Shown: positions 26,394 to 46,508 of the stretch, piece after piece | How positions within the stretch are numbered: position 1 is the first letter of the stretch | Layout: each line of letters begins with the position of its first letter | NCBI GenBank assembly: GCA_023131705.1 | Contig: JAGLZG010000057.1 | Location: forward strand, 1-52,126 | DNA: 52,126 nucleotides | Source of the DNA: Nanobdellota archaeon | Lineage (GTDB): Archaea; Nanobdellota; Nanobdellia; Woesearchaeales; B3-WOES | Reading direction: 5' to 3' | Notes under the pieces: generated by a model | What the model saw: only the letters and a program-made list of their open reading frames with translations | What the model was told of the DNA's origin: nothing | Database searches by the model: none | Made by a program: the position numbers and the translations under genes

Positions 26394-26735
26394 GTGACAA
26401 TATTAATTGTATGTATTGTAATATTCACTTTAGGAGAATTTGCAAAAGCAAGCATAGCATCAAAGCAACACATTAAATATCTTGACGATTTTGAATGGGT
26501 AAAATCAAATACACCTAAAGATTCTATATTTTATCCTTTTGTCCATGGGCTTGTTTATAACCTGGACAGATACGTTATAAATGATTATTCATCAACAGAT
26601 TATTATTTTGAGCAATATTCACATAAACTAGAACCTTTATCTCTAAATGTCATTGAAGAAAACTTTGATTTAGTTGATGATAGCCTGTATACAGATGTTA
26701 AGGTTTATAAATCTATAAATAACAAAAACATTTAA
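26394..26735 (+). pseudogene. Orphan fragment homologous to the C-terminal anchor plus soluble domain of the GT-C protein at 30977-32599
   Basis: The 113-aa GTG-initiated ORF aligns with residues about 430-540 of the 30977-32599 product (IVCIVIFTLGEFAKASIASKQHIKYLDDFEWVKSNTPKD vs IICIIIFVVAEFVKVEVAAGTHKKYVDDFKWLKENIPED; both end in VK.YK). In-frame stops lie immediately upstream and there is no N-terminal GT-C body. Confidence 0.45.
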
Positions 26736-26770
26736 ATATTATCATCTTATTCTATTTTAGGGGATTAATT

Positions 26771-29220: not shown

Positions 29221-29232
29221 AACGTAAGCAAT

Positions 29233-30339: not shown

Positions 30340-30341
30340 AA

Positions 30342-30878: not shown

Positions 30879-30976
30879 TATGGAAAGTTATACATCTTTA
30901 GATAACTTGTCAAAGCTGTACGTCTGATTTGTTCGACCTTATAAGATTGGTTTTTAATTAATATAGACAAAATAAA

Positions 30977-32599: not shown

Positions 32600-32679
32600 A
32601 TTTTTATTAAAAAACGAAAAAAATAATAAAGACCATACTAAAAAGTTTTATATACTTATAGCCACAACAATATATAAAA

Positions 32680-33615: not shown

Positions 33616-33616
33616 T

Positions 33617-33762
33617 TATGTCGGAGTCGAGCTTAAAACTATTGGACTTTAGTCCGTAGATAAAGGCTCGACTCTGAGCATCCTAAAAATCAGTCTATAA
33701 ATGCAAGCGTCCATTCAAACTCCTGCCTAAAGGCAGGAGTAGGATGCTTGCGACCGATTTTT
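33617..33762 (+). repeat. G+C-rich double long-hairpin element between the fcl-like gene and wzx (structured RNA, terminator or MITE-like repeat)
   Basis: Hairpin A pairs CGGAGTCGAGC (33622-33632) with GCTCGACTCTG (33666-33676) and has a nested GGACT/AGTCC. Hairpin B pairs AAAAATCAGTC (33685-33695) with GACCGATTTTT (33752-33762), TGCAAGCGTCC (33702-33712) with GGATGCTTGCG (33742-33752), and ACTCCTGCC-taaa-GGCAGGAGT (33719-33740). An alternative pairing is AGCATCCT (33677-33684) / AGGATGCT (33741-33748). Confidence 0.5.
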
Positions 33763-33841
33763 ATGATATTAAAATTTATTAGTTATGAGACACAGCAACA
33801 AATTCATAAACCTTTTAAAACCCACTCAATCTGTTCTTTAA

Positions 33842-35335
33842 ATGACAAATTATCTATCTAGGGGGCTAAAAGGATTGTTTTTTATATTTACTTTTACATT
33901 TCTTGCCTATCTTACAGGTTATGTAACAAGGACATTATTAGCTAGAAATTTAGAAACTTCTCAATTTGGTCTGTTTTATGCTGTTTATACTCTTATTATG
34001 TTTGCTACCATATTTGCTTATTTTGGTTTTGGTGCACCTTTGGTAAAATATATTGTAGAGTTTAAAGCAAAAAAGAAGTATGAAAAACTAACATTTTCTA
34101 TTTTTTTCCCAACTTTAATTATGGCTTCACTTGCTATAATCATCTCTATTTTTTTATTTCTGAGTTCAAATTTTTTAGCAATAAATTTTTTTAAGACCCT
34201 GGAAGCTTTGTTTATAATAAGATTGTTTTCTATAGTTATGATATTAACTGTAATATTTCATACTCTAAATTTAATATTTAAGGGATTTCAAGACTTCTTT
34301 TTTGTTGGTCTTTCTACTTTCTTTGGAAAATTTTCTTTTACAATTTTTGTTATATTATTTCTTTTACTTGGCTTTGAAAAAAACGTGTATTTACCAACTT
34401 ATGCCATATTATTTGGGTTTGTGTTAACCATATTGTTGTTCTTGCCAAGGCTGCTTAAATATAAGGGTTATTTCAGAAAAATAAAATTTTCTTCTGATTT
34501 GGCAAAAAAAATCAAAAATTTTGCATTTGCATCTTTTTTAGCTTCAATTGGTTTATTAATAATTGGTTATGTTGATACTCTTATGTTAACATATTTTAGG
34601 TCTTTGGAAGAAGTTGGAATCTATAATGTTGTCTTACCGACTGTTATGGTATTGAGTATGTTTACTCAATCAGTCCGTAGTGTTTTGGCTCCTATGGTAA
34701 GTGAATTGTGGGCTAAAAATCTTAAAGAAAGATTAAGCAATGGAATAAAAATATTAAGAGATTATTCTTTAGTATTAATAGTTCCTATGATTCTTGTTCT
34801 GTTTGTTTTTCCGAAACCCATAATCACATTATTATTTGGTGCAAAGTATGTTAGCGGTTATTTAGCTATGCAGATCCTTTCTATAGGGATTGTATTTTTT
34901 ACAATTGGATTTATGGACATAATAATCATAAGATTTATTGGAAAACCAAAGGAAACAACAAAGATTATATTCATTGCAGTCATATTTAATGTAATTGCTA
35001 ATTTAATCCTTATACCTCTTTTTGGAATAAATGGAGCTGCTATAACAACAACACTAAGTTATTTTATTGTAATGATATTATCTTCTGTAAAATTAAATCA
35101 TTTTGTTAAGGTAAAATCAAGTTTATCATTTTGGTTTAAGGTTATATTTGCAGCTGTATTTTTTGTAATTACAGTAGCAATCGTTAAGGCATTATTGAAT
35201 ATAAACCAATTTGTTGAGGCTGCGATTTGTTTGATTTTAGCAACTGCTGTTTACCTTGGAATCTGTTATATGTTAAACCTTATTAAAATAAAAGAGGTTA
35301 AATTATTTTTGAGGAGTTTTTTATTGAGAAAATGA
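33842..35335 (+). CDS. MOP-superfamily polysaccharide flippase (Wzx-like)
   Basis: 497 aa with 12-14 hydrophobic helices, the Polysacc_synt-type architecture. Confidence 0.75.
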   Translation: MTNYLSRGLKGLFFIFTFTFLAYLTGYVTRTLLARNLETSQFGLFYAVYTLIMFATIFAYFGFGAPLVKYIVEFKAKKKYEKLTFSIFFPTLIMASLAIIISIFLFLSSNFLAINFFKTLEALFIIRLFSIVMILTVIFHTLNLIFKGFQDFFFVGLSTFFGKFSFTIFVILFLLLGFEKNVYLPTYAILFGFVLTILLFLPRLLKYKGYFRKIKFSSDLAKKIKNFAFASFLASIGLLIIGYVDTLMLTYFRSLEEVGIYNVVLPTVMVLSMFTQSVRSVLAPMVSELWAKNLKERLSNGIKILRDYSLVLIVPMILVLFVFPKPIITLLFGAKYVSGYLAMQILSIGIVFFTIGFMDIIIIRFIGKPKETTKIIFIAVIFNVIANLILIPLFGINGAAITTTLSYFIVMILSSVKLNHFVKVKSSLSFWFKVIFAAVFFVITVAIVKALLNINQFVEAAICLILATAVYLGICYMLNLIKIKEVKLFLRSFLLRK

Positions 35336-36381
35336 AAAAACCATTATTAGAAATCAAAAAAATATGGGACATTTATAATAATCCAAAAGATTATTACAGA
35401 TTTAATTATATTGGTCAAGAAATTAATATATTCTTTGGTAAAAATATTTTGCATAAACATTTAAAAGAAATATCTTGTTCTAAACCATTAAAAATCCTTT
35501 TTGAAGACATAGACTCAATAAAAACCTTAAAAAATGAACTTGAAAAAGATTTTCCAACAAAAGAAGATTCAAATTTAATTATCTCTTTAGGGGGAGCGGT
35601 AGCAATTAATAAAGGAAAAATATTGCGTAATGAAAATAAAAATAGCAGGCTTATAATTGTTCCAACCACATGCGCAAACGATGGATTTTTTACAAACAGA
35701 TATAAAAAAGATAAAAACTCAGCTTCTACAGCTTTAAGTGGGCTTATGCCTGACTTTCTAATTGTTGATACAGAAATGATAAAAAAATTAGTTACAGAAG
35801 ATATGATATATGCAGGATGGGGTGAGTTTTTGTCTTTAATTGCATCATATAATGATTGGAAGGAAAATAATAAAGGCCTAATTGAAAAAGATGAATTAGA
35901 GCTACTTGATAAACTTGTTGATAAGATGTTTAAAGATGCAAGAGATTTTTTTGAAAAAGAAGATGATATTAATAAAAGCGTTGATATTTTGATGCATTTG
36001 CTTTTTATGAAATGCTTATTTATGATGATTTATGATGACAATTCAATAGGGGCTTCAAGTGATCATATGTTTGCTTATAGTATAGAAGGGTTAGGTTATT
36101 GTGATAAGTTAAGACATGGGCAAAAAGTTTTGTTTGGAGCTATTGTATCTTCAGGATGCTATTCTATTATTAATGGAAATGGTTTTGTAGATATGATTCC
36201 TAAAAAAATAGTGGATTATGTTGTAAAAGAGGAATGTTTTAAAAAGATTTTAAATCCACAAGATTTAAAAGTGATTTTAGACAAAGCATTAGTATCAAGA
36301 AACAGGAAAACCATACTTAATAAGATACATAGTGATCACACATTTTACAATAGTTTAGTTAAAGAGATAAAAAATGTTTAG
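35332..36381 (+). CDS. Glycerol-1-phosphate dehydrogenase / AraM-like enzyme (DHQS-like, iron-ADH superfamily fold)
   Basis: SLGGAVAINKGK loop, VPTTCANDGF (cf. G1PDH VPTxxSxDG), AGWGEF (cf. GxGD), and putative metal ligands in SSDHMF and RHGQKV. ATGA overlap with wzx. Confidence 0.55.
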   Translation: MKKPLLEIKKIWDIYNNPKDYYRFNYIGQEINIFFGKNILHKHLKEISCSKPLKILFEDIDSIKTLKNELEKDFPTKEDSNLIISLGGAVAINKGKILRNENKNSRLIIVPTTCANDGFFTNRYKKDKNSASTALSGLMPDFLIVDTEMIKKLVTEDMIYAGWGEFLSLIASYNDWKENNKGLIEKDELELLDKLVDKMFKDARDFFEKEDDINKSVDILMHLLFMKCLFMMIYDDNSIGASSDHMFAYSIEGLGYCDKLRHGQKVLFGAIVSSGCYSIINGNGFVDMIPKKIVDYVVKEECFKKILNPQDLKVILDKALVSRNRKTILNKIHSDHTFYNSLVKEIKNV

Positions 36382-37540
36382 AAATCTTATACTAAAATAT
36401 AGGGTAGAGGAATCATCAAACAAAGAGATGGATATTGTTATAGATGTACTTATACAAAAAGTTATTGCAGATGCTTCTTTAGGAACAGATTATGTATTAA
36501 CTGCAACCGGTCAAGAATTTTCTGTTCATGAAAAACAAGATGATGTTGTTGAGGCTAAAGTTGTAAAAAGAGAAAAAATTGATGATAAAACTACCGAACT
36601 TGTATTTAGTGTCCCTATTTATTTTGAGGAGAAATCTGATTTCTTTCCAATGTTTTTAACATGTACTGGAGAACCGCCAGGATTCCATTCAAATATTTAT
36701 TTAGAGGATTTTTCTTTTGAAGGCGAAGATCCTTTTAAAAATGATTTAGCAAATGGACCAGAGAAGTATAAAAGATATTTTGGTAGAGAAGGCCCTTTTG
36801 TTGGAACAATAATAAAACCAAATCTTGGAACAGATATGGAGAAAAGGCTTGATTTAATAAAGAAGCTTATGATGGCTGGTGTTGATTTTCTTAAAGATGA
36901 TGAAGTTTTTGGGCATAAAAGTTTTGAGGATTTTGAAGAATATGTTATAAAAGTAAATAAAATAAGAGAAGAAGTTTATAAAAAAACAGGCTACAAAGCA
37001 TTAGTTTGTTTTAACATAACTTCTTTAGCTTCAAAAGCTGATGAAATATATAAATTGCCAATAGATGGAATTATGATAAATTTTTTGGCTTTAGGATTCT
37101 CAAAATCATATGATTTGGTACAGAAGTTCAAAGGTAAATGCATTATTCATGGCCACAGAGTAGGATCTGCTATTTTTTTAAGCAGAATTCATAAGAATGT
37201 TCTAATTAAATTAGCAAGCATGATTGGATTAGATAGCACACATATTGGAACATCACAACTAGATAAAATTGAGAAAGATTCAGAAAAGTTAGATACCCCT
37301 TATATAAAAACAATTTTAGCTACATTCACTAAAGTCAATCCAAAATATGTTGAACCCTTGATAAATAATTTTGGAAAAGATATCTTATTTTTACCTTGTG
37401 GAGGAGTTTACAGGCATCCAGGAGGTTTTGAAAAAGGGGTTAGAGCATTTAGAACAGCAATAGATATATATAATAATGAACAAAGTCAATTTTATGATAA
37501 AAAAGCATTTGATAAAGCATTAGCAAGGTGGGGTTATTAA
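36374..37540 (+). CDS. RuBisCO large-subunit-like protein (form IV RLP)
   Basis: IIKPNLG (cf. KPKLG), GVDFLKDDE (cf. DFTKDDE with carbamyl-Lys and metal ligands), IHGHRVG (cf. HxHRA), THIGT (cf. LHSGT) and LPCGGV (cf. SGG). At 388 aa it is short, with a divergent N-domain. Confidence 0.8.
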   Translation: MFRNLILKYRVEESSNKEMDIVIDVLIQKVIADASLGTDYVLTATGQEFSVHEKQDDVVEAKVVKREKIDDKTTELVFSVPIYFEEKSDFFPMFLTCTGEPPGFHSNIYLEDFSFEGEDPFKNDLANGPEKYKRYFGREGPFVGTIIKPNLGTDMEKRLDLIKKLMMAGVDFLKDDEVFGHKSFEDFEEYVIKVNKIREEVYKKTGYKALVCFNITSLASKADEIYKLPIDGIMINFLALGFSKSYDLVQKFKGKCIIHGHRVGSAIFLSRIHKNVLIKLASMIGLDSTHIGTSQLDKIEKDSEKLDTPYIKTILATFTKVNPKYVEPLINNFGKDILFLPCGGVYRHPGGFEKGVRAFRTAIDIYNNEQSQFYDKKAFDKALARWGY

Positions 37541-38403
37541 TGGGAATAAAAAATTTTTTTGAGGAAAAAGGATATTCTGATGCAGAAATAGTTAATGAAA
37601 GGATAGGATTCCTCAATTTAGTATATACTATAAAAGCAGGAGGTGAAACATTTTTCTATAAAAAAGCAGAGGAAAAAACAGGGTTGCCAACACCAATAAA
37701 TCCTGACAGGGTTTTTAATGAGTGGAAAGCAATTAATGCAGCAAAAACAGTAATTCCAGAGCATGTGCCTGAGATATTTGATTTTAGCAAAGAAAACAAC
37801 GTTATTATTACAAAAGCCCCCTCAAAAAAAGAATACACTCTTTTGAGATACGAACTATTAGATGGAAATCTTAATCTAGAATTGATTAAAAAAATTGCGA
37901 TTGCCCTAAAAAAACTTCATACTATAAAACAAGGAGATTTTAATAAGGAATTGTTTGAAAAAGCAAATATAGATTTTTGGTATAAAGAATTAGCAAAAGA
38001 ATATCCTAAAGTTATTGAAAAATTAATAGAGAATCTTAATCAAGAAAAATGTTTAACTCATGCAGACTTTAATCCAAAGAACATTGTTGTTTTTGAAGAC
38101 GGTTTTTATATTATTGACTGGGAAAAAGCTTTCATAAGCAGCCCAGAACATGATATTGGCAATATGCTTGCTCATTTTGTAATTAAAGGAATCCATTTGG
38201 GAAGAGAAGATTATCTTAAGGTTCCTGAAATATTTTTAGAAGCTTATGGTGAATATGTCGATAAAAACATTATTAATGGCCATATAGGGGTACTTATGTG
38301 GGCTAGAATAAAATCCTCTGCAAAAGCAAGATATTTGACATCTGAAACATCACAGAAAGTTCTTGAAGGGGCTCACAAGTATTTGAGAGAGTTTAAGCTT
38401 TAA
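37528..38403 (+). CDS. Small-molecule kinase of the APH / choline kinase / MtnK fold
   Basis: Brenner-type motif LTHADFNPKNIVV followed by IIDWEKAF. The N-terminal region YKKAEEKTGLPTPINPDRVFNEWKAI resembles the MtnK N-lobe. It overlaps the RLP stop. Confidence 0.7.
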   Translation: MGLLMGIKNFFEEKGYSDAEIVNERIGFLNLVYTIKAGGETFFYKKAEEKTGLPTPINPDRVFNEWKAINAAKTVIPEHVPEIFDFSKENNVIITKAPSKKEYTLLRYELLDGNLNLELIKKIAIALKKLHTIKQGDFNKELFEKANIDFWYKELAKEYPKVIEKLIENLNQEKCLTHADFNPKNIVVFEDGFYIIDWEKAFISSPEHDIGNMLAHFVIKGIHLGREDYLKVPEIFLEAYGEYVDKNIINGHIGVLMWARIKSSAKARYLTSETSQKVLEGAHKYLREFKL

Positions 38404-38424
38404 ATAAATTTTGATGAAATTACA

Positions 38425-39342
38425 ATGAAACCTGTAAAAGAATGTATACCATGTCAAAGAAAGAGAGCTATGCTTATTACTAAAAATCTTAGTGAAGAGA
38501 AAAAGAAGGAATTGACCAAAAGGATAAATGTTCTTTTCTCTAATCTGGATATGAATAGATGCACAATAGATATAGCTAATGAGAGGAATAGGATAATCAA
38601 AGAAATTGCAGGTAAAGATGCATTAATGGATGATTTAAGGGAAGATAGTATGAAGGCTGCTGAAAAGATTTCTCCTAATCTAGAACAAGATTTAGAAAAA
38701 ATAAAAGATGAAGAGGAGAGATTTTGTAAGGCACTTAGAATAGCTTTGGCAGGAAATGTAATTGAATTTGGGACTACTAATCATGTTGTTAAAATAGGGG
38801 AAATAGAAAAAAGAGTACATGAAACAATTAAGCAGGAACCAGCAATAGATGACAGCAGAATGGTTTATGAAATTGTTCAAGCTTACAACCATTCAAACAG
38901 AATATTATATCTTGTTGATAATGCTGCTGAGATAGCATTTGACAGGTTGTTCATAAAGGAATTAGTAAAACATGCTATTGTTGTTATTGCAGCTTTATCA
39001 GAGCCGGATCAGGATGATGCTTGTGTAGAGAATCTAAAACGTTTTGGTATAGACAAGATACCTAATTGTGAAATTATAACAAAAGGGAAGTATATAGGGG
39101 CATATTTTCCAAACACAACAAAGCAATTTAAGGTAGAGTTTGAAAAAGCTGATTTAATTATATCAAAAGGCATGGGGAATTATGAGAGTCTAAGTGAATA
39201 CTCAGATAAGATAATAAACAAAGTTGTATTTATGTTAAAATTAAAATGTGGACCTGTTGCAGATAGCTTTAGTGATTTCTTCAATATAGGAAACAAACTA
39301 GAAGTTGGGGCAAATGTAATCAAGTTTGCTTCTAAAAATTAA
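38425..39342 (+). CDS. DUF89 (ARMT1-like) metal-dependent phosphatase family protein
   Basis: Family motifs VDNAAEIAFD (DNxxE...D) and KGMGNYESL. Confidence 0.7.
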   Translation: MKPVKECIPCQRKRAMLITKNLSEEKKKELTKRINVLFSNLDMNRCTIDIANERNRIIKEIAGKDALMDDLREDSMKAAEKISPNLEQDLEKIKDEEERFCKALRIALAGNVIEFGTTNHVVKIGEIEKRVHETIKQEPAIDDSRMVYEIVQAYNHSNRILYLVDNAAEIAFDRLFIKELVKHAIVVIAALSEPDQDDACVENLKRFGIDKIPNCEIITKGKYIGAYFPNTTKQFKVEFEKADLIISKGMGNYESLSEYSDKIINKVVFMLKLKCGPVADSFSDFFNIGNKLEVGANVIKFASKN

Positions 39343-41494
39343 TGAAATGAATAATATTAAAAAAACAAAAAATTATTGTATGATAGGTCATGTATCAATT
39401 TTAACTTCTAAAACTAAAGAAGGTAATAAAGGTAAATCCAATTCTGATATAATTAAAGAAAGAAAACCCTCTCAAAGAATAATGTCCTTGTTGACTAGTT
39501 TTGAGCAAAAAGATTATAAAAAAAACTATGTTTTCAAAAATTATTCAAAGACAATAAAAAACAAGAAACCAATAGAGCAATTTAAGTATTATCTGGAAAA
39601 CAATCCAGTTGTAATAAATGACAATGAACTTCTTGTAGGAGGTATCTTCCTAAGGTTTAAAGATATTAAGATGGAATTAAAGGCAGGAAATGCCTTTAAA
39701 AGGGTAATTGGAGATTCATATTTTTCAACAGGAGTTAAAGGGTATAGTATAAGAACTCCTCCAGGATATAAAAATATAATAAAATTTGGTTTTGCAGGAC
39801 TAAGAGACAAATCATTAAGATTATTAAAAAAAGAGAAAGATCCTGAAAAGATAAAGTTTTTAGAGAACAGCGCTAAAGCCAATGATTTAGCTTGTAAGTT
39901 TATAGCAAAATATTCTGAAGAAGCCTTGAGGAAATCTAAAACTGAAAAAAATCTTTCTAGAAAAAGAGAGTTATTGAAGATAGCAAAATGCTGTCATGAT
40001 ATTTCTGTTAGAGAACCACGTCATTTTTATGAAGGGGTCCAGATTATCTGGTTTACTAAGGTCTTTGGTGCTGTTGGTGGCTTAGGAAGATTTGACCAAT
40101 ATCTTTGGAAATTATTTAAAAAAGACCTCAAGGAAGGAAGATTGAATTATGAGGGGGCATTAGACCTTATTGAAGATTTTTGGATAAAATGCAATTTATG
40201 GAATCAGGGATGGACTGCACCAAATGATTCATGGCAGCACATTACATTATCAGGATTAAAACCTAATGGGGGAGATGGTACAAATGATTTAACTTACTTA
40301 TGTTTACAGGCGCAATATGATCTAAAATTACCAGAACCTAAAGTTAGTGTGAGGTTTTCAGGTAAACATCCTGAAGGGTTAGTTGCTGAAACCTGTAAGG
40401 TTCTTAGATTGGGATTAGGAATGCCTTCTATCTATAATGATAAAGTTGTTATTCCTGGTCTTAAAAGATTAGGGATAAGTTTGAAAGATGCAAGAGATTA
40501 TACAAATAATGGATGTTCAGAGATAATTTTAGATGGTAATTCAACAACTTGTTTTGCTCAAATAAATCTTTTGGATATATTGAATAAAACAATAAGAAAA
40601 AAAGCATTTTCTAATTTTAAAGATTTGTTAGATACATATAAAGTTGAGATTGAAAAAGAGATACAAATTCCAGAAGTAAATTCTGTTACACACCCTCTTT
40701 TAGCTTCTACAATGGATGATTGCCTTTTGAAAGGCTCTGGCAATTGCGCAAGATACATTCTTAAAGGAAGCCTTGCTAATGCAACACCAAATGCAGTGGA
40801 TGGTTTAGCAGCAATAAATAAACTGGTTTTTGAAGATAAAAAATTATCATTGAACAAATTTATTAAAGCATTAGATTCTAATTTCAAGGATAATTCTATC
40901 AGGCACTTAATTATTAATGTTCCTAAATATGGAAATGATGAATCTTATGCAGATTTAATAGCAAAGGATATTGCAGAATATTTTTGTGATGCTGTTTTAA
41001 GAAAATATCCTAATAAAAAAGGAGATAATATCAAGGTTTCTCCAGGATTATTGGCTTTTGATGTACAATATCTTAGACATATGGATGCATCTCCAGATGG
41101 AAGAAAGAAAGGAGAGCATGTTGCTAATGCTATAAGCCCAGCTATTGGGAGAGATTTAAAAGGACCTACAGCAGTAATCAATTCTGCTAGGAAAATAGAT
41201 TTTAGAAAAGCAAGCTATGGCTCTGTTCTTGACATGGTTTTTTATTCAGGTTTATTTTCTCAACAAACAGAAGACAGATTTGTTGATTTTATTAGAACTT
41301 TTTTAAAGTATCCATCTACAGCAACATTACATGTCAATTTTCTTGACATAGAACTTTTGAAAGCTGTTCAAAAAGATCCTAAAAACCCAGCGTATAAAAA
41401 TATAATTGTAAGAGTATGGGGATTCTCAGCTTATTTTGTTGATTTGGACAAGGATTTACAAGATCATATTATCAAAAGGACACAATTTATGTAA
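39326..41494 (+). CDS. Glycyl radical enzyme, eliminase/dehydratase-type Cys loop
   Basis: C-terminal glycyl radical motif VRVWGFSAYFVDL and Cys loop NNGCSEIIL (GCxE, as in the diol/choline/hydroxyproline eliminases, not the CC of PFL). The start codon is uncertain (39326, 39347 or further in). Confidence 0.85.
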   Translation: MLLKINEMNNIKKTKNYCMIGHVSILTSKTKEGNKGKSNSDIIKERKPSQRIMSLLTSFEQKDYKKNYVFKNYSKTIKNKKPIEQFKYYLENNPVVINDNELLVGGIFLRFKDIKMELKAGNAFKRVIGDSYFSTGVKGYSIRTPPGYKNIIKFGFAGLRDKSLRLLKKEKDPEKIKFLENSAKANDLACKFIAKYSEEALRKSKTEKNLSRKRELLKIAKCCHDISVREPRHFYEGVQIIWFTKVFGAVGGLGRFDQYLWKLFKKDLKEGRLNYEGALDLIEDFWIKCNLWNQGWTAPNDSWQHITLSGLKPNGGDGTNDLTYLCLQAQYDLKLPEPKVSVRFSGKHPEGLVAETCKVLRLGLGMPSIYNDKVVIPGLKRLGISLKDARDYTNNGCSEIILDGNSTTCFAQINLLDILNKTIRKKAFSNFKDLLDTYKVEIEKEIQIPEVNSVTHPLLASTMDDCLLKGSGNCARYILKGSLANATPNAVDGLAAINKLVFEDKKLSLNKFIKALDSNFKDNSIRHLIINVPKYGNDESYADLIAKDIAEYFCDAVLRKYPNKKGDNIKVSPGLLAFDVQYLRHMDASPDGRKKGEHVANAISPAIGRDLKGPTAVINSARKIDFRKASYGSVLDMVFYSGLFSQQTEDRFVDFIRTFLKYPSTATLHVNFLDIELLKAVQKDPKNPAYKNIIVRVWGFSAYFVDLDKDLQDHIIKRTQFM

Positions 41495-41495
41495 A

Positions 41496-42251
41496 ATGAA
41501 ATTAAATAAGTCAAATAAATCAGAGAAATTAATTGTTTTTGATATTAAGAGGTTTGCAATACATGATGGTCCAGGTATAAGGACAACTGTTTTTTTACAA
41601 GGATGTCCTTTAAGATGTGGCTGGTGCCATAATCCTGAAGGAATTAGTATTGGTAAAGGTCCAAAATCTAAAAAAATTGAATTAAATGAATTATTTGAGG
41701 AAATAATTAAAGATAAACCTTTTTATGAGATTTCTAAGGGGGGAGTTAGTTTTTCTGGTGGAGAGCCAATGCTCCAATTTAAACCGCTTACTAAACTTTT
41801 AAGAATGTGTAAGAAATCCAAGGTTAATACAGCAGTGGAAACTTGCGGACATTGCAATTGGGAAGCTTTTGAAAAGATAATCCCTTTTGTTGATTTGTTT
41901 TTTTATGATTTGAAGCATATTGATAATAAAATTCATAAAAAAGGGACTGGAAGCAGTAATAAAATAATTCTTGACAATCTAAAAAAGCTTGATAAAAGGG
42001 GATGTAATATTGTTATTAGAATACCTCTTATTTCTGGTTTTAATGATGACAAAAAAACCTTTTCAGATATTGGAAAATTTCTTTCAGAATTAAAAAACAT
42101 AAGATTTATAGAAGTTCTTCCTTTTAATGTGTTTGCAGAATCAAAATACTCTAAGCTTGGGAAAAAGATTGATGAGAAATTTACTAAAATTTTATCTCAG
42201 CAGAAGATTAATGAATTAACAGAACCCTTAAGAAAGGAGATTAGGAAATAA
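41496..42251 (+). CDS. Glycyl radical enzyme activating enzyme (radical SAM, short PflA-like form)
   Basis: FAIHDGPGIRTTVFLQGCPLRCGWCHNPE and SGGEPMLQ. The start is set to ATG 41496, 1 nt after the GRE stop. The tracked ORF begins at 41436, inside the GRE. Confidence 0.85.
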   Translation: MKLNKSNKSEKLIVFDIKRFAIHDGPGIRTTVFLQGCPLRCGWCHNPEGISIGKGPKSKKIELNELFEEIIKDKPFYEISKGGVSFSGGEPMLQFKPLTKLLRMCKKSKVNTAVETCGHCNWEAFEKIIPFVDLFFYDLKHIDNKIHKKGTGSSNKIILDNLKKLDKRGCNIVIRIPLISGFNDDKKTFSDIGKFLSELKNIRFIEVLPFNVFAESKYSKLGKKIDEKFTKILSQQKINELTEPLRKEIRK

Positions 42252-42269
42252 TTTTATTGTTGATAGACT

Positions 42270-43712
42270 TTAACAAACAATTTTTAACTTTCGCTTTAAA
42301 AAAGGAACAACATAATTAAGGATTCTTAATTTTTCCAATAGCATAATCTTTTTTAGATAATTTGGATGGGTTTTTAGGAATTTACTCTCACTTAACATTT
42401 TTATAAACCAATTAGGCGTTATTGTGCTCGCGAGAATGTATAAACTATTGTAAAACCTTTCATAATCTTTTCCTTTATCTTTATTAAATCTCCAGTTAGT
42501 ATGCATCTTATTACTATACTGCTCGAGATCATCATGTTTTATAAAACCTTTCTCCAATGCTAAATTTGTTAGCTCTGTATTTGGGAAATAAATAAGTGAG
42601 AATATTATTAAATCAAAAGGTTTCCTCAGTTTTAAGAGAAGATTAAGAGTTTCTTCCTTGTTTTGTTTAGTTTCAAATGGGTTATCAACTATTAAATGAT
42701 ATGTTACATTTATTCCCCACCTTTTTAGCATTTTAGAAACATCTATTAACATTTTATTAGACATAAATCTTTTATAAAGTCCTTGTCTTATCTTTTCAGA
42801 ACCAGATTGAATTCCTACAAAAACTCTCTCTAAATTAGCTTCTTTAAGTTTTGTTAGGATTTCTTCATCACAGAACAGAGGATGTATGTTGATGTAAAAC
42901 GGAATGTTAATGTGTTTCTTGTATTTTTCTGCAAATTCCAGGACCCATTTTCTATCCATAAGAAAAACATCATCTCTTATATCTACTATCTTTATATCAT
43001 AGTTTTCTTTTAATTCCTGCAATTCCTTTATAACATTATCAACACTCCTTCTTCTTATGTAATTACCACATTCCTTCTGGGCATTTCTTAATGAGTTATT
43101 GCCACAATAAGTGCAGGAATAAGGACATCCTCTTGCACCCATTATATATGCAACCTCTATCTTTTTTAGTTCTGTTTTTATTGTGTTATCTTCTATATAA
43201 TATTTGTTCTTATCTGTCCAGTCTGCAAATTCTTGTTTGTTTGGGTCTGTGAACTTTCTTAGTTTGTTTCTTATTATCTTACCATTTTTATTGACCCAAA
43301 TATTTAATATGCTATCTGTCCTTTTTTGTATGAGATCTGGTAATGCTTCTTCAGCTTCTCCAACACATATATAATCTGCTTCTTTAATACATTCTTCAGG
43401 ATTAGTTGTTGGATGAAATCCACCCCAAATGACTTTTGCATTCGTGTTCTCTTTAATCAATTTTGTTATCTTTTTAGATAGCTGAAAGTAATGAGACATT
43501 AAACTTATTCCTACAAAATTAGGATTTAATTCTTTTATTTTGCTGATTAGTAAATTAAATTCCTGTTCTGTTGGATATTCCAGTTTGTTTTTTTGGTATG
43601 TATCTTTTAGAAAAATAGTATGAACTTCAATCTTTTTATTGTATAGAGTTTTATGTAATATTCTAATTGGATGATTCCTGAAATCATAAAATGCTATTAA
43701 AACAATCTTCAT
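42270..43712 (-). CDS. B12-binding-domain radical SAM enzyme (class B)
   Basis: An N-terminal Rossmann-like B12-binding-type domain (MKIVLIAFYDF...GISLMS...VIWGGFHPT) followed by GARGCPYSCTYCGN (CxxxCxxC). Confidence 0.75.
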   Translation of the reverse strand: MKIVLIAFYDFRNHPIRILHKTLYNKKIEVHTIFLKDTYQKNKLEYPTEQEFNLLISKIKELNPNFVGISLMSHYFQLSKKITKLIKENTNAKVIWGGFHPTTNPEECIKEADYICVGEAEEALPDLIQKRTDSILNIWVNKNGKIIRNKLRKFTDPNKQEFADWTDKNKYYIEDNTIKTELKKIEVAYIMGARGCPYSCTYCGNNSLRNAQKECGNYIRRRSVDNVIKELQELKENYDIKIVDIRDDVFLMDRKWVLEFAEKYKKHINIPFYINIHPLFCDEEILTKLKEANLERVFVGIQSGSEKIRQGLYKRFMSNKMLIDVSKMLKRWGINVTYHLIVDNPFETKQNKEETLNLLLKLRKPFDLIIFSLIYFPNTELTNLALEKGFIKHDDLEQYSNKMHTNWRFNKDKGKDYERFYNSLYILASTITPNWFIKMLSESKFLKTHPNYLKKIMLLEKLRILNYVVPFLKRKLKIVC

Positions 43713-43731
43713 AAATACATACCTTTTTTAA

Positions 43732-44871
43732 TTAAAATGTTTCGTCAAAAACCATTCCAACAACTTCTTCTGTTATTTCAATTGGATCACGACCTGTAAG
43801 TACATCCATAGTATTTTTTATTATCCTTGCTTTGTCATCTTGTGTTATTCCTAATTCACTTAATCTTGTTTTTTCTCCTGTGTCTTTAATTAGTTTCTTC
43901 ATTTTGTTACCAAATTCTTCTACTGTTTTGCAATCAACAACATTAGCCATTTCCAATATCTCATTTTTAACTTCTTTACCACATTTCTCTGCATAAATAT
44001 TTAAAAATGCAGGCAAGGGCAAGATACAAGCATATCCATGGTTAATGTTGTGGAATGTTGTAAGTGGGCATGAAAATGAATGTGGTCCAACTGTTCCTGT
44101 TTGAGTAAAAGCAAGTCCAGCGTATAGGCTTGCTAAAGCCATGTTTGTTCTTGCATCAATATTTTCTGGTTGGTCTACTGCCGTTTTTAAATTATCAAAC
44201 ACCATTGTTATTGCTTTTAATGCAAACATTTTTGATATAGGGTTTTTGTTGCTGTTTGATAGGCAAGATTCAACTGCCTGAGCTAGCACATCATATCCTG
44301 TATGGGCTGTTATGTGTTTAGGCATTGTTAGAGTCAATTCAGGATCAATTATTGCAATATTAGGATACATGTATTCACTTCTTATACCCATCTTTATGCC
44401 TGTTTCTTCATCTGTTATTACAGATGCAATAGTTACTTCTGATCCTGTACCTGATGTAGTAGGTATAGCTATTAATGGAATACTTTCTCTCCCTATAATT
44501 CTTCTTTTGTGGATATAATCATTAATTGTTCCAGCGTTTGTCATTAACATAGCAATAGCTTTTCCAGTGTCCATTGCACTTCCACCACCTATAGCTATTA
44601 TTAATTCTATTTTATTTTTCTGAGCAAGTCTTTTTCCTTTTTCAATTATTTTTGAGTGAGGATTTGGTTCAACATACTCAAAAATAGTTAAATTACAATC
44701 TTTTAGTTGCTTAAGTAATCTCTCTTTGAGTTCTAGTTTTTCCATCAATACTTTTTCTGTTACAAGAAGTATGTTTTTTACATTAAAATCTTGTTTAATA
44801 TATTTACCAATCTTATTAAACTCCCCATTACCAATATGTAGTTTTACTGGCATTTCATATTTGAAACTCAT
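43732..44871 (-). CDS. Iron-containing (group III) alcohol dehydrogenase
   Basis: IAIGGGSAMDTGKAIA, IPTTSGTGSE and His-rich metal site motifs. The start is set to MSFKYEMPVKLHIGNGEF (44871), the normal family N-terminus. The tracked ORF extends to 44976. Confidence 0.8.
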   Translation of the reverse strand: MSFKYEMPVKLHIGNGEFNKIGKYIKQDFNVKNILLVTEKVLMEKLELKERLLKQLKDCNLTIFEYVEPNPHSKIIEKGKRLAQKNKIELIIAIGGGSAMDTGKAIAMLMTNAGTINDYIHKRRIIGRESIPLIAIPTTSGTGSEVTIASVITDEETGIKMGIRSEYMYPNIAIIDPELTLTMPKHITAHTGYDVLAQAVESCLSNSNKNPISKMFALKAITMVFDNLKTAVDQPENIDARTNMALASLYAGLAFTQTGTVGPHSFSCPLTTFHNINHGYACILPLPAFLNIYAEKCGKEVKNEILEMANVVDCKTVEEFGNKMKKLIKDTGEKTRLSELGITQDDKARIIKNTMDVLTGRDPIEITEEVVGMVFDETF

Positions 44872-45028
44872 TTTGTTATTTTTTATTAGAAGTAAAGGAG
44901 GATATATAAAGGTTTTTGTTAATTTTAATTTTTGTAAGTTATAAATGAAAACTTTGTTATTGAAAATTGGATTCATAAATCATAAATACATAACTTTTAT
45001 AAACTAACCAAAGTTTTTCTATTTTAAA

Positions 45029-45766
45029 ATGTTCGATAATTTCAAAAAAAAAGTAAAAGAAGAAACAAAAGTCAGAGTATTCTATACAGAAAAAATAACT
45101 AGGAATATCACTCCTTTAATAACCAAACTTCTTTTATTAACACCAATAACAGCAAACCAAGTTACTTTTATTATGCTCTTAACAGGACTAGTTGCTGCTT
45201 TTTTATTTGTTTTTGATATCCAATCATATGCTATAATTGGTTCATTATTGTTGATTTTACAACATACCTTAGATGCAGTTGACGGAGAAATAGCAAGATA
45301 CAAAAAAATATCTTCTCTGAGAGGAAAATATCTAGATATAATAACTCATTATACAACTGAACCTGCACTTTTTATTGGTATTATGTTTGGAATTTTAAGG
45401 TCAAATCCAACAATAACTATCATAATAGCTGGAATTTCTTGTGCAATATTTATCTCCTTAATCAATTTAACTTATTTAATAAAAAAATATATAGTAATAG
45501 AACAAGTAGCTAAACAAGGAAAATGGAAAACCGTAAAAAAAGAGAGAAATAAAAATATCCTATCAAAGATTTATAGACCTTTAGCACCAATATTCAGATG
45601 GCCAGAATATCATTTTGTTGTATTATTGGCCTCTATATTTTATAGACTTGACTGGTTGCTGTATTTCTATGGATGCACCCTACCAATAATATTCTTAATT
45701 AGATCATTTGTTGAATTTTATGCTATACCCAAAGATATAAAAAAAATCAAGAAAATAATATGGTAA
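45029..45766 (+). CDS. CDP-alcohol phosphatidyltransferase-family membrane protein
   Basis: Signature LDAVDGEIARYKKISSLRGKYLDIITH (DxxDGxxAR...GxxxD), with about 6 hydrophobic helices. The last signature Asp reads His. Confidence 0.7.
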   Translation: MFDNFKKKVKEETKVRVFYTEKITRNITPLITKLLLLTPITANQVTFIMLLTGLVAAFLFVFDIQSYAIIGSLLLILQHTLDAVDGEIARYKKISSLRGKYLDIITHYTTEPALFIGIMFGILRSNPTITIIIAGISCAIFISLINLTYLIKKYIVIEQVAKQGKWKTVKKERNKNILSKIYRPLAPIFRWPEYHFVVLLASIFYRLDWLLYFYGCTLPIIFLIRSFVEFYAIPKDIKKIKKIIW

Positions 45767-45767
45767 A

Positions 45768-46508
45768 ATGAAAGCTTTACTCTTTGCAGCAGGAAGGGGA
45801 AAAAGAATAAGTGAATTAGCAAAAGATATTCCAAAACCTCTGTTAGGAATAGCAGAAGGAAAAACCATTATTGAAAATCTATTAGATATGCTTTTATTAA
45901 ATAATGTTAAAGAAGCTGTTATTGTTATTGGTTTTAAAGGAGAAAAAATAATTGAAAAATTAACTAACAATTATAAAGGAATAAAGATTACCTATGTTTT
46001 GAATAAAGACTATGAAACAACAAACAGTGCTTATTCTTTTTATGTTGCCAGAAACTATGTAAAAGAAGGATGCTTGCATTTTAATGCAGATAATGTAATG
46101 CACCCAAAAATAATTGAAATACTTATTAATGCTGAAAAAGAGAATGCCTTTATGTATGATGATATGAATCCTCCATGTGAAGAGGATTGCAAAGTTAGAA
46201 TAGATGAGAAAGGAGCAATACTTGACTTAGGTAAACAGATGGATCCTTCAAATACCCAGGGATGGATTATAGGAAGCGGTAAATTCTCAGCAGAAGGTAT
46301 CAAAAAAGTAGTTGATATAATGGAAAATGATATTGAAAAATGGAAAAAGCTTAATATACCATTACTTCTTTTTGGGCAGGGCATTGATGTTTATGCTGTG
46401 AGCAGTAAGGGTTATCCTTTTGGTGAGATTGATAATGTAGAGGATTTAGAAAAAGTAAGAAATGAAGTTTACCCAAAGATTTTAAAAGACATTCAAAATT
46501 TAACTTAG
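45768..46508 (+). CDS. Nucleotidyltransferase (LicC/MobA-like, phospho-alcohol or sugar-phosphate cytidylyltransferase candidate)
   Basis: N-terminal MKALLFAAGRGKRISELAKDIPKPLLGI; 246 aa. It starts 2 nt after the CDP-alcohol transferase stop. Confidence 0.65.
   Translation: MKALLFAAGRGKRISELAKDIPKPLLGIAEGKTIIENLLDMLLLNNVKEAVIVIGFKGEKIIEKLTNNYKGIKITYVLNKDYETTNSAYSFYVARNYVKEGCLHFNADNVMHPKIIEILINAEKENAFMYDDMNPPCEEDCKVRIDEKGAILDLGKQMDPSNTQGWIIGSGKFSAEGIKKVVDIMENDIEKWKKLNIPLLLFGQGIDVYAVSSKGYPFGEIDNVEDLEKVRNEVYPKILKDIQNLT

Follow-up and report, generated by a model that had tools for sequence, protein, structure and literature searches.

The locus examined here raises the question of why a RuBisCO-like protein (RLP) is encoded beside a glycyl radical enzyme (GRE) within an archaeal glycan-biosynthesis island and whether the two belong to one pathway. 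A preliminary description of this DNA had proposed that they do, either in a route to a CDP-activated alcohol that decorates an exported glycan or in an oxygen-independent salvage of 5-deoxyribose or methylthioribose. The window, meaning the whole stretch analyzed, comprises 52,126 nt (positions 1 to 52,126, forward strand) of contig JAGLZG010000057.1 (GCA_023131705.1), from a Nanobdellota archaeon of the B3-WOES group. The block under study, 33842-46508, contains eleven genes running from Wzx through NTP_transferase:

33842..35335, + strand, Wzx/MOP-family flippase (PF01943, 98 bits)
35332..36381, + strand, G1PDH-like dehydrogenase of the DHQS/Fe-ADH superfamily (NF002022, 56 bits versus a cut-off of 413)
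36374..37540, + strand, RLP of an isolated, uncharacterized clade (PF00016, 95.5 bits)
37540..38403 (alternative GTG start 37528), + strand, APH/choline-kinase-fold small-molecule kinase (PF01636, 49 bits)
38425..39342, + strand, DUF89/ARMT1-type metal-dependent phosphatase (PF01937, 155 bits; PDB 2g8l, 91 bits)
39347..41494 (ORF from 39326), + strand, GRE of the PFL2/1,2-eliminase type (PF02901, 333 bits, plus PF01228)
41496..42251, + strand, GRE activase, a short PflA-like radical SAM protein (TIGR02494, 262 bits versus a cut-off of 174)
42270..43712, - strand, B12-binding radical SAM enzyme, convergent to the GRE operon (PF02310 plus PF04055)
43732..44976 (probable start 44871), - strand, Fe-ADH (PF00465, 168 bits, plus PF25137)
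45029..45766, + strand, CDP-alcohol phosphotransferase-family membrane enzyme (PF01066, 38.7 bits)
45768..46508, + strand, NTP_transferase-fold nucleotidyltransferase, IPCT/PntC/LicC-like (PF00483, 45.5 bits)

Long ORFs in DNA of 29% GC, together with strong family E-values, place these eleven genes far beyond chance, and the ORF coordinates and directly read junctions bear out the gene count, family assignments, and tight packing given previously. The Wzx and G1PDH-like genes overlap at an ATGA, the G1PDH-like and RLP genes overlap by 8 nt, and the RLP and kinase genes meet at a TAATG (1-nt overlap); gaps of 21 nt (kinase/DUF89), 4 nt (DUF89/GRE), and 1 nt (GRE/activase) follow. From this packing we infer that the genes from Wzx to the activase are co-transcribed. 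Relative to the ORF list, some starts were corrected, with likely ATG codons at 37540 for the kinase, 39347 for the GRE (a 715-aa protein in the database gene call), and 41496 for the activase. The surrounding glycan-biosynthesis island is a mosaic in which many lineage-specific insertions surround a conserved backbone; its GC content is uniform, and the GRE region matches its flanks.

The RLP itself resembles no described family closely. When 1.84 billion cluster representatives were searched with a profile, its own cluster scored 704 bits and the runner-up only 106 bits, and its scores against the NCBIfam equivalogs all fell far under the cut-offs. The protein represents a tiny, isolated, and very rare clade that lies apart from every characterized RLP family. 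Residues K175, K201, D203, E204, H294, R295, H327, G403, and G404 are kept, whereas K177 is replaced by N, a deletion in loop 6 takes K334, and S379-G381 are lost. The pattern points to a carbamate-Lys/Mg2+ site and enolization residues that have been retained in a protein from which the carboxylation-specific residues have gone, and because of these three changes carboxylation is not expected.

The gene directly 5' of the RLP gene encodes a dehydrogenase whose best solved relatives are PDB 3ce9 and the G1PDH 4rgq. Its residues D117, H245, and H262 line up with the metal ligands, it carries the loop GGAVAINKGK, and the family has only four members among 5.8e9 proteins. The same arrangement is found in the window and in L001-4, L005, L006, and L011. 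All 5 of the 5 lineages of the RLP clade have the pair, and distant homologues of the dehydrogenase lie upstream of short RLPs in L027 and L029 (hhalign, 98% and 98%).

The unit conserved over five lineages is this pair, with the G1PDH-like dehydrogenase gene ahead of the RLP gene. Closer relatives add APH-fold kinase, CDP-alcohol transferase, and NTP transferase genes after it; the whole usually sits behind Wzx, and some phosphatase is always nearby. Orthologs in L001-L005 are 59% (Wzx), 55-62% (G1PDH-like), 72-75% (RLP), 66-67% (kinase), 60-77% (CDP-alcohol transferase; 60% in L001 and 77% in L005), and 54-71% (nucleotidyltransferase; 54% in L001 and 71% in L005) identical to the window proteins. 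The Wzx gene of L001/L002, at 59% identity, likewise overlaps the G1PDH-like gene; the kinase orthologs of L001 and L005 (66-67%) are encoded directly 3' of the RLP; and in L005 the orthologs from Wzx to the nucleotidyltransferase form a single contiguous operon. L006, whose RLP is 51% identical, has no kinase directly downstream of the RLP.

Other roles recur even where the proteins filling them do not. The phosphatase is a DUF89 protein in the window, an HAD-IA protein in L001, and an unrelated HAD encoded upstream in L005; the cassette phosphatases (DUF89 versus two unrelated HADs) are mutually non-orthologous. Around the RLPs of four distant lineages (L024, L026, L027, and L029), a small sample on which to judge recurrence, the neighbors include G1PDH-like proteins, NTP transferases, CDP-alcohol transferases, B12 radical SAM enzymes, and non-homologous kinases and phosphatases. 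There the phosphatase role extends to a nucleotidyltransferase-HAD fusion (L024) and a His_Phos_1 protein, and the kinase role, filled by an APH fold in the window, passes to a dTMP-kinase-like protein in L026 and to 2PGK-like proteins in L027 and L029. One outgroup RLP (P0089) is surrounded by a nucleotidyltransferase, a CDP-alcohol transferase, and three B12 radical SAM enzymes. The conserved RLP cassette is made up of the G1PDH-like dehydrogenase, RLP, kinase, phosphatase (DUF89 here), nucleotidyltransferase, and CDP-alcohol phosphotransferase, and it is coupled to Wzx by overlapping reading frames within the mosaic island. The proposed linkage of the RLP with kinase, phosphatase, nucleotidyltransferase, CDP-alcohol transferase, and flippase genes has thus held up in independent lineages and, more loosely, around distant RLPs. 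Because analogues fill their roles in relatives that have no GRE, the DUF89 protein and the B12 radical SAM enzyme are more readily seen as members of this cassette than as partners of the GRE.

Conservation of this kind does not extend to the GRE, which is found in 0 of the 4 other lineages of the RLP clade and at 0 of the 4 outgroup RLP loci. The RLP-GRE linkage is unique to this contig, a finding that the preliminary description had itself named as refuting its proposal. The best solved relative of the GRE is the B12-independent glycerol dehydratase 1r8w (272 bits, ~30% identity); C433 and E435 are kept in the Cys loop NNGCSE, as is the radical glycine in the motif RVWGF. This best match and the GCSE loop argue for an eliminase rather than a PFL-type enzyme, as had been supposed. 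The alignment to glycerol dehydratase, however, shows no conservation of H164, D447, or the NGHS loop, a W in place of Y339, and a shortened N terminus. Because the GRE lacks the residues with which glycerol dehydratase protonates the departing hydroxyl, the type of elimination is uncertain. A search of 5.8 billion proteins returned no homologue above 33% identity, and the gene neighborhoods of the nearest relatives are unrelated to that of the window. The protein is an orphan of the eliminase type with an altered pocket. Its activase carries CX3CX2C (CPLRCGWC), has no ferredoxin insert, and matches TIGR02493 over its full length. Since the GRE is absent in relatives, is an orphan, and lies in a slot that is empty in L005 and filled by an HAD in L001, we tentatively regard the GRE, activase, and Fe-ADH as a lineage-specific add-on that occupies a variable position in the cassette, after the kinase and before the CDP-alcohol transferase. 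The GRE block could also be a functionally separate passenger.

Family matches of the remaining proteins bear on what the cassette might make. The N terminus of the kinase is weakly MtnK-like (TIGR01767, 44.7 bits versus a cut-off of 275). The CDP-alcohol transferase is matched best, among NCBIfam models, by archaetidylinositol-phosphate synthase (60 bits); in its signature, DxxDGxxAR..G..D...H, the fourth and last Asp has become His in all five paralogs, and its chemistry may therefore differ. The nucleotidyltransferase matches the IPCT half of IPCT/DIPPS over its full length (58 bits), and among solved structures it is closest to 6pd1 (52.7 bits over full length), with LicC at 32.6 bits; 6pd1 is PntC, an AEP cytidylyltransferase (PMC6697681). 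For the B12 radical SAM enzyme, the best NCBIfam models are rSAM_ladder_B12 (114 bits) and then HpnJ (94); its closest metagenome relative is 36% identical, and it is 32-34% identical to three paralogs flanking the outgroup RLP in L024. The Fe-ADH scores ~230 bits on each of the ErcA and Phn_Fe-ADH models, under their cut-offs. With no more than 32-34% identity to the Fe-ADH adjoining the cassette in L001, it is not an ortholog of that protein. Directly upstream of the cassette-abutting Fe-ADH in L001-L003 lies the C terminus of a phosphonopyruvate decarboxylase (Ppd; TIGR03297, E 6e-11).

The explanation that we favor, at somewhat less than an even chance, is that the RLP cassette makes a nucleotide-activated head group for a glycan of the cell surface and that the GRE is a lineage-specific addition to it. 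Both the step order and the identity of the alcohol are inferred. The kinase, RLP, and dehydrogenase would together yield an unusual polyol or ketol phosphate, with the RLP enolizing, isomerizing, or epimerizing a keto-phosphate and the G1PDH-like dehydrogenase interconverting keto and hydroxyl groups beside the phosphate, as in the conversion of DHAP to G1P. The nucleotidyltransferase would turn this product, or a partner molecule, into a CDP- or CMP-linked donor, which the membrane CDP-alcohol transferase would join to an acceptor at the cytoplasmic face; the phosphatase would strip the phosphate left behind, as happens in the PGP, AIP, and DIPP pathways, and Wzx would export the decorated lipid-linked glycan. 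Most likely the GRE would carry out a radical 1,2-elimination to an aldehyde that the Fe-ADH would reduce, and the output of this pair would change or supply the head-group alcohol, paralleling the Ppd and Fe-ADH genes that abut the cassette in the sister lineage. Tailoring of a nucleotide-linked intermediate, for example by methylation, is the probable role of the B12 radical SAM enzyme. A route of this kind, leading through the RLP to a CDP-linked head group, has better support than an RLP-GRE pathway and would still be undescribed. Of the decoration route first proposed, the part that joins the cassette to CDP-alcohol transfer and a flippase recurs in relatives, while the coupling to the GRE does not.

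Of the alternatives, a phosphonate head group fares best, although we consider it unlikely. The nucleotidyltransferase would be a PntC/Fom1-like enzyme whose product is a CMP-phosphonate (for instance, CMP-2-hydroxyethylphosphonate), the B12 radical SAM enzyme would methylate the CMP-linked intermediate as Fom3 does, the Fe-ADH would be a phosphonoaldehyde reductase, the CDP-alcohol-family enzyme would move the phosphonyl group to the glycan, and the GRE could dehydrate a dihydroxyalkylphosphonate. Fom1, FomC, and Fom3 are the nucleotidyltransferase, Fe-ADH, and B12 radical SAM enzyme of the early steps of fosfomycin biosynthesis and so provide a precedent for this trio. The PntC and Phn_Fe-ADH matches, the Ppd fragment in L001-L003, and weak matches of the nucleotidyltransferase and B12 radical SAM enzyme to the Sden_1164 and Sden_1168 (P-methyltransferase) models all speak for it, and the cytidylyltransferase activity of Fom1 is on record (PMC6697681). 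Yet neither PEP mutase nor phosphonopyruvate decarboxylase occurs among the ORFs of at least 100 aa in the 52-kb window, nor in L005 or L024; every phosphonate-model score is far under its cut-off; the nucleotidyltransferase matches IPCT about equally well; and the invariant G1PDH-like/RLP pair and the kinase are left without a role.

It is rather improbable that the GRE, activase, and Fe-ADH are an independent fermentative or catabolic module of the glycerol/diol dehydratase plus DhaT type, unlinked to the cassette, that came to lie in a glycan island prone to recombination. In its favor, the GCxE GREs known so far are catabolic, glycerol dehydratase is the closest solved structure, an Fe-ADH gene lies next to the GRE block in the window, and a GRE unique to this contig would suit a mosaic island rich in lineage-specific insertions. 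Such an origin fits poorly, however, with an insertion placed exactly within an otherwise contiguous operon, 4 nt past DUF89, with GC content equal to that of the flanks, with the lack of conservation of the glycerol-dehydratase substrate residues, and with a window that holds no uptake, regulatory, or cofactor-recycling genes; gene blocks in glycan islands, moreover, normally contribute to the glycan. The strict form of the original proposal, one linear route through the RLP, kinase, DUF89 phosphatase, and an obligatory GRE step, seems to us a poor prospect. The co-stranded genes from Wzx to the activase (overlaps or gaps of 1-21 nt), the position of the GRE between the kinase and the CDP-alcohol transferase, and the lack in the window of the transport, regulatory, or microcompartment genes that mark catabolic GRE loci favor it, but the cassette runs GRE-free in four other lineages of the RLP clade, the four outgroup RLP loci have no GRE either, and with all GRE relatives at ≤33% identity no co-evolution with the RLP is demonstrable. 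The salvage of 5-deoxyribose or methylthioribose, with the kinase, RLP, and phosphatase in the parts of MtnK, MtnW, and MtnX and the GRE taking over from the dehydratase and dioxygenase, is very improbable and found no positive support: the triad resembles MtnK-MtnW-MtnX (the L001 phosphatase being an HAD, like MtnX), the kinase N terminus weakly matches MTR kinase, and the island encodes several radical SAM enzymes, but the MtnK (44.7 versus 275) and MtnW (75-80 versus 409-513) scores fall far short, the window encodes no MtnA, MtnB, MtnD, or aldolase, the phosphatases are not mutually orthologous, and the cassette is always joined to a nucleotidyltransferase and a CDP-alcohol transferase and usually to Wzx.

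Comparison with known systems brings out what the RLP-dependent head-group route would share with each. In Bacillus, MtnK (MTR kinase), MtnW (an RLP acting as DK-MTP-1-P enolase), and MtnX (an HAD phosphatase) are encoded together, as are the kinase, RLP, and phosphatase here; the kinase has an APH fold with a weakly MtnK-like N terminus, and the RLP, like MtnW, retains the KDDE carbamate/Mg site and enolization residues. The window proteins differ in scoring far below the cut-offs, in the absence of MtnA, MtnB, and MtnD, in a phosphatase drawn either from DUF89 or from several unrelated HADs, and in the cassette's obligate G1PDH-like partner, nucleotidyl and CDP-alcohol transfer, and flippase. 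Form III RuBisCO of the archaeal/CPR AMP pathway is the top characterized relative of the RLP (TIGR03326, 118 bits; 2cwx, 81 bits) and shares with it most RuBP-binding and enolization residues, but no AMP phosphorylase or R15P isomerase is encoded near the window RLP. The GRE glycerol dehydratase of Clostridium butyricum has the same Cys, general-base Glu (GCxE), and radical Gly and an Fe-ADH nearby, whereas the window activase lacks the auxiliary-cluster insert and the operon setting is that of glycan biosynthesis. The phosphonate and fosfomycin pathways (PntC or Fom1, FomC, Fom3) use the same trio of enzyme families, and the sister lineage adds Ppd and Fe-ADH, but the window is without PEP mutase or Ppd, its RLP, G1PDH-like protein, and kinase go unexplained there, and scores are subthreshold. 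TarI/TarJ make CDP-ribitol and TagD makes CDP-glycerol for teichoic acids and capsules, and in these routes too a reduced sugar phosphate is nucleotide activated and then added to a surface polymer; they rely, however, on IspD-like or TagD-like cytidylyltransferases, SDR/MDR reductases, and TagF-type transferases, and we know of no RLP in any of them. The IPCT/DIPPS and AIP/PIP synthase pathways activate a polyol phosphate with CDP, use a CDP-alcohol transferase to transfer it, and then dephosphorylate the product. The window differs from these in its far-sub-cut-off scores, the His at the fourth signature Asp, the Wzx glycan setting, and the lack of an inositol-phosphate synthase, in place of which the kinase, RLP, and G1PDH-like dehydrogenase would supply the polyol phosphate; what it has in common with them is a nucleotidyltransferase gene adjoining that of a CDP-alcohol transferase, each with its best family match in these systems, and a phosphatase alongside.

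A conserved cassette is coupled to the Wzx flippase of this window and lies inside a mosaic glycan island. It comprises a G1PDH-like gene, a RuBisCO-like protein (RLP), a kinase, a phosphatase, a CDP-alcohol phosphotransferase (CDP-OH transferase) and an NTP_transferase-fold nucleotidyltransferase (NTPt). Every gene named in the preliminary description is present, and the ORF map and profile searches agree on them.

Genes of the cassette region in the window, assigned from the ORF map and profile searches, with motifs where noted
33842-35335, + strand: Wzx flippase
35332-36381, + strand: G1PDH/DHQS-superfamily protein (G1PDH-like)
36374-37540, + strand: RLP
37540-38403, + strand: APH-fold kinase
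38425-39342, + strand: DUF89 phosphatase
39347-41494, + strand: glycyl radical enzyme (GRE); NNGCSE Cys loop, RVWGF glycine motif
41496-42251, + strand: short activase; CX3CX2C, without ferredoxin insert
42270-43712, - strand: B12 radical SAM enzyme
43732-44976, - strand: Fe-ADH
45029-45766, + strand: CDP-OH transferase
45768-46508, + strand: NTPt

Read from the sequence, the junctions are an ATGA overlap between Wzx and the G1PDH-like gene, overlaps of 8 nt (G1PDH-like/RLP) and 1 nt (RLP/kinase), and gaps of 21 nt (kinase/DUF89), 4 nt (DUF89/GRE) and 1 nt (GRE/activase).

The entire 52-kb window is a glycan island, which also encodes glycosyltransferases, DegT aminotransferases, RmlC, GDP-mannose dehydratase, YfhO, PMT_2, a pyruvyl transferase and heptose genes. 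Conserved backbone and strain-specific inserts alternate in it as a mosaic. From YfhO to Wzx (20073-33841), genes for sugar nucleotides and glycosyltransferases take up about 13.8 kb, where L001, a locus with the same RLP clade, holds a single methyltransferase (L001:6648-7462). Neither of the two large ORFs at 4591-8323 (688 and 532 aa) has a Pfam or NCBIfam match; the shorter one has a counterpart of 66% identity in L001 and is therefore part of the conserved backbone. Several other features of the island were seen in passing. An FkbH-like protein (TIGR01686, 300 bits), a 4'-phosphopantetheinyl transferase and a hexapeptide acyltransferase are grouped on the - strand at 13939-16721, an arrangement suggestive of glyceryl or acyl decoration via a carrier protein within this island. 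The sugar-nucleotide genes have among them a second radical SAM enzyme, a SPASM-type one (25262-26305), and an F420-hydrogenase-beta-like Fe-S protein is convergent and overlapping with a polysaccharide pyruvyl transferase (47674-50173). The - strand at 13-576 encodes a sigma-70 region 4 protein, the sole taxonomic hint in the window, which suggests a bacterium. No tRNA genes were found in the window, and a promoter/terminator scan of it returned fewer sites than shuffled sequence and is uninformative in such AT-rich DNA.

The cassette recurs in sister lineages, as the comparison with L001 and with L005, another locus carrying this RLP clade, makes clear.

Identity of window proteins to their counterparts at two sister loci (tblastn)
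Wzx: L001 59%; L005 no match
G1PDH-like: L001 55%; L005 62%
RLP: L001 75%; L005 72%
Kinase: L001 66%; L005 67%
CDP-OH transferase: L001 60%; L005 77%
NTPt: L001 54%; L005 71%

At L005 the G1PDH-like gene, RLP, kinase, CDP-OH transferase, NTPt and a second CDP-OH transferase form a single unbroken operon, with a HAD phosphatase just upstream. The related loci L001-L004 have a different, unrelated HAD between kinase and CDP-OH transferase, and a methyltransferase between CDP-OH transferase and NTPt. None of the cassette loci L001-L005 contains a GRE, an activase, a DUF89 protein or a B12 radical SAM enzyme. Compared with these sister loci, the window therefore has additional genes at 38425-44976, at a point that in L005 is a 1-nt junction. 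Two members of this stretch were considered in other roles. DUF89 as a partner of the GRE was rejected, since its position and role equal those of the HADs in GRE-less relatives. Fe-ADH as a conserved cassette member was rejected as well, since the L001 Fe-ADH is only 32-34% identical and goes with a phosphonopyruvate decarboxylase (Ppd) gene. That gene is represented by a 42-47-aa Ppd C terminus (TIGR03297, E 6e-11) at the contig ends (L001:16605-16733, L002:10568-10711, L003:6781-6912), directly upstream of Fe-ADH; all three assemblies break inside it.

More distant loci retain the arrangement in part. The outgroup consists of the four nearest RLPs, 24-28% identical to the window RLP, and is thus a small sample of four contexts. 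At the P0089 locus (L024, GCA_034660355.1) a B12 radical SAM gene comes next after the RLP, then genes for a CDP-OH transferase, an NTPt and a further B12 radical SAM enzyme; the opposite strand encodes a second CDP-OH transferase, a fusion of NTPt and HAD, and the last of three B12 radical SAM enzymes. This locus (JAYEIZ010000195.1, 311-10568; RLP 27% identical) also has an epimerase and a cupin and is itself an uncharacterised cluster. Each of the three P0089 copies shares 32-34% identity with the window B12 radical SAM enzyme, nearly as much as the latter's best match in a metagenome scan (36%), in which every relative lay at or below that figure. At the P0090 locus (L026) the RLP lies between a dTMP-kinase-like protein and an unknown protein, and an NTPt comes after the latter; for the 264-aa gene after the RLP there, kinase-like and CDP-OH-like assignments were both rejected. 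At P0092 and P0094 a distant G1PDH-like homologue lies directly upstream of the RLP (hhalign 98.2% and 97.8%, respectively), with 2-phosphoglycerate-kinase-like kinases and His_Phos_1 phosphatases nearby. In these two loci (L027:990-5095 and L029:8849-13785) the short RLPs (361-365 aa), the G1PDH-like protein, the 2-phosphoglycerate-kinase-like kinase and a 407-410-aa histidine-phosphatase protein make up a conserved set; the histidine-phosphatase protein of L027 has a phosphoribosyltransferase-like N-terminal half, and the L029 copy adjoins a transposase and defence-type genes. The outgroup contexts indicate that the kinase, G1PDH-like, RLP and phosphatase roles recur, and that non-homologous proteins take the first and last of these. 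Some of the outgroup (n = 4) also has NTPt, CDP-OH transferase and B12 radical SAM enzymes, and no GRE was found in any of the four contexts.

The RLP itself is very rare. A search of 5.8 billion proteins yielded only three relatives, at 75, 72 and 51% identity; a four-sequence profile run against 1.84 billion cluster representatives gave 704 bits for its own cluster and 106 bits for the next, and a profile scan of GTDB species representatives found no relative encoded. It belongs to the RuBisCO large-subunit superfamily (PF00016 catalytic TIM barrel, 95.5 bits against a cut-off of 30.1) and matches PDB RuBisCO and RLP chains with up to 81 bits. It lies outside the characterised clades: every NCBIfam RLP/RuBisCO model scores far under its cut-off, including those for form III RuBisCO (TIGR03326, 118 vs 497), MtnW/DK-MTP-1-P enolase of form IV-YkrW (NF007095, 79.7 vs 409; TIGR03332, 75.4 vs 513.6) and the 3-oxo-isoapionate-4-P decarboxylase OiaX/OiaC (NF042437, 68.9 vs 700). 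Its nearest neighbours are themselves unclassified. In a neighbor-joining tree that is crude and only indicative, the window RLP clade is sister to 26 short RLPs, including P0092 and P0094.

Alignments to a form III RuBisCO structure and a form III-like sequence show that the RLP retains K175, K201, D203, E204, H294, R295, H327, G403 and G404. K177 is replaced by N and H298 by S, S379-G381 are lost or replaced, and K334 is removed by a seven-residue deletion in loop 6; the carbamate/Mg site is thus kept and carboxylation residues are lost, as in form IV. With that site retained and K177, K334 and S379-G381 lost, the protein is predicted to be a Mg-dependent enolising enzyme, and carboxylation is not expected. 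AlphaFold models of the RLP (pLDDT 60) and the G1PDH-like protein (pLDDT 53), built on 3-4-sequence alignments, were too poor for use. RLPs are generally regarded as isomerases or epimerases (summarised in PMC7325909).

The G1PDH-like protein is as rare as the RLP, with four members, and its gene immediately precedes that of the RLP in each lineage seen (the window, L001-L004, L005, L006 and L011). Its D/H/H metal ligands align with those of EgsA/AraM, so fold and metal site are common to both, but the score against the sn-glycerol-1-phosphate dehydrogenase model does not place it in that family (NF002022, 56.4 vs 413). The kinase resembles methylthioribose (MTR) kinase (MtnK) over the N-terminal third only and lies below the family threshold (TIGR01767, 44.7 vs 275). 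The DUF89 protein has the DUF89/ARMT1 Pfam domain (PF01937, 155 vs 25) but lies below the NCBIfam equivalog (123 vs 440). The CDP-OH transferase matches PF01066 (38.7 vs 22). Of the family signature D(x)2DG(x)2AR(x)8G(x)3D(x)3D, it has the Gly, the Ala-Arg and every Asp but the fourth, which is an invariant His (DxxDGxxAR-x8-GxxxDxxxH) in all five of the following paralogs.

CDP-alcohol transferase paralogs sharing the Asp-to-His change
Window, 45029-45766
L001:12729-13496
L001:14763-15479
L005:3667-4410
L005:5136-5876

A GTDB scan with the CDP-OH transferase profile returned a single weak match, at an unrelated Flavobacterium housekeeping locus. Neither transfer enzyme belongs to the IPCT/DIPPS family (NF041135: NTPt 57.9, CDP-OH transferase 42.7, cut-off 580), and no inositol-1-phosphate synthase (MIPS) was found in the window.

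The likeliest mechanism that these assignments suggest is as follows. The kinase would produce a phosphorylated keto-sugar or ketol, which the RLP would enolise, isomerise or epimerise, and the G1PDH-like enzyme would interconvert keto and hydroxyl groups next to the phosphate, much as DHAP is converted to G1P. The NTPt would then form a CDP- or CMP-linked donor, the CDP-OH transferase would join donor and acceptor, and the phosphatase would strip the residual phosphate. In this lineage GRE and Fe-ADH would make and then reduce an aldehyde, altering or supplying the alcohol, and would parallel the Ppd and Fe-ADH pair of the sister lineage. By analogy, the B12 radical SAM enzyme may tailor a nucleotide-linked intermediate, for which Fom3, which acts on CMP-HEP, provides a precedent. 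A bolder reading, less likely than not, is an unrecognised RuBisCO branch of short RLPs (K177 replaced, loop 6 truncated) with an obligate G1PDH/DHQS-fold partner and interchangeable kinases and phosphatases, which would carry out a new keto-sugar-phosphate reaction leading to a CDP-linked head group of surface glycans or lipids, here joined by a new type of GRE eliminase.

A serious rival, which we nevertheless consider unlikely, is that the head group is a phosphonate. The best solved relative of the NTPt is the AEP cytidylyltransferase PntC (6pd1, 52.7 bits; PMC6697681, which also cites the Fom1 activity), the sister lineage carries Ppd with Fe-ADH, and there are weak matches to the Sden_1164 and Sden_1168 models. 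However, window ORFs of at least 100 aa include no match to PEP mutase (PF13714) or to Ppd/TPP enzymes, and a phosphonate would leave the invariant RLP/dehydrogenase pair without explanation.

Two further alternatives concern the GRE. Its membership in the GRE superfamily is clear (PF02901, 333 bits; PF01228, 50 bits; motifs RVWGF and NNGCSE), and it falls in the PFL2/eliminase group, with B12-independent glycerol dehydratase (GDH, 1r8w; 272 bits) as the best solved match. The GCSE loop aligns with C433 and E435 of 1r8w, as in 1,2-eliminases; thiyl Cys, general-base Glu and radical Gly are conserved, and the enzyme looks functional. Its assignment as an eliminase rather than a PFL was borne out by the single loop Cys and by TIGR01255 (68 vs 994). 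It fits no characterised substrate family, scoring under the cut-offs for HpsG (299 vs 1000), HypD (291 vs 1100), CutC (269 vs 1050) and the PFL2-3 subfamily (356 vs 678). The GDH residues H164, H281/S282 and D447 have no identical aligned residues in pairwise and MAFFT alignments, which are imprecise near gaps. In pairwise and 56-sequence alignments, a His (H164 in GDH) is absent from the window GRE and present in 28 of its 29 closest homologues. The loop preceding GRFDQY is shortest in the window protein, D447 falls in a gap, and Y339 is replaced by W. DGC[SA]E and RVWGFSAYFV are common to it and a few uncharacterised Chloroflexi-type GREs. The best homologue anywhere is 33% identical, and the neighbourhoods of the three nearest homologues are unrelated to the window locus. 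The activase is a GRE-activating enzyme (TIGR02494, 262 vs 174.35; CPLRCGWC present) of a short PflA-like form. It lacks the auxiliary ferredoxin insert that eliminase activases typically have, even though the GRE it accompanies belongs to the GCxE type.

The GRE-activase pair is a lineage-specific insertion in the variable slot of the cassette. That the GRE block is an independent catabolic passenger seems rather improbable, given that it sits inside the operon. A strict linear pathway from RLP to GRE is more doubtful still, as conservation gives it no support. The interpretation in the preliminary description is partly supported. The proposed undescribed route would have the RLP cassette at its centre rather than a partnership of RLP and GRE: the GRE is absent in relatives, and no co-occurrence beyond this contig appeared in the sister lineages or the four outgroup loci. 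The other proposal of the preliminary description, salvage of MTR or 5-deoxyribose, is very improbable, with no positive evidence, a kinase and an RLP outside MtnK and MtnW, and no eIF2B-like isomerase, class II aldolase-like dehydratase or ARD (MtnA/MtnB/MtnD) found in the window.

The window RLP clade stands outside every characterised family, is always beside the same novel dehydrogenase, and is linked with a flippase and with enzymes for nucleotidyl activation and CDP-alcohol transfer. To our knowledge, the known functions of RLPs are few (methionine salvage, the MTA-isoprenoid shunt, and the catabolism of apionate and tetronate-type acid sugars), and all are salvage or catabolic. If the proposed head-group route is true, an RLP would for the first time have a biosynthetic role directed at the envelope, and the window GRE would be among the first to serve anabolism and not catabolism; the inference, should it hold, would also establish a new way of making phospho-alcohol or phosphonate decorations. 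The GRE is of interest in its own right: it is an orphan of the eliminase type, its pocket is remodelled, its activase is minimal, and it lies within a biosynthetic operon. The cassette is small, at four to six genes, and because non-homologous proteins supply the same partner functions around distant RLPs, the model is directly testable.

In the literature searched, we found no link of RLPs to nucleotidyl or CDP-alcohol transfer, G1PDH-like enzymes, 2PGK or GREs, and nothing relevant for GREs with DUF89 or with polysaccharide. The component families are already known, as is the overall logic of a nucleotide-activated head group. The proposed NTPt, CDP-OH transferase and phosphatase steps follow the same logic as the PGP, AIP and DIPP pathways, whose families are the best family matches of the NTPt and the CDP-OH transferase. 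Set beside these systems, the RLP/G1PDH-like supply module and the anabolic GRE would be new.
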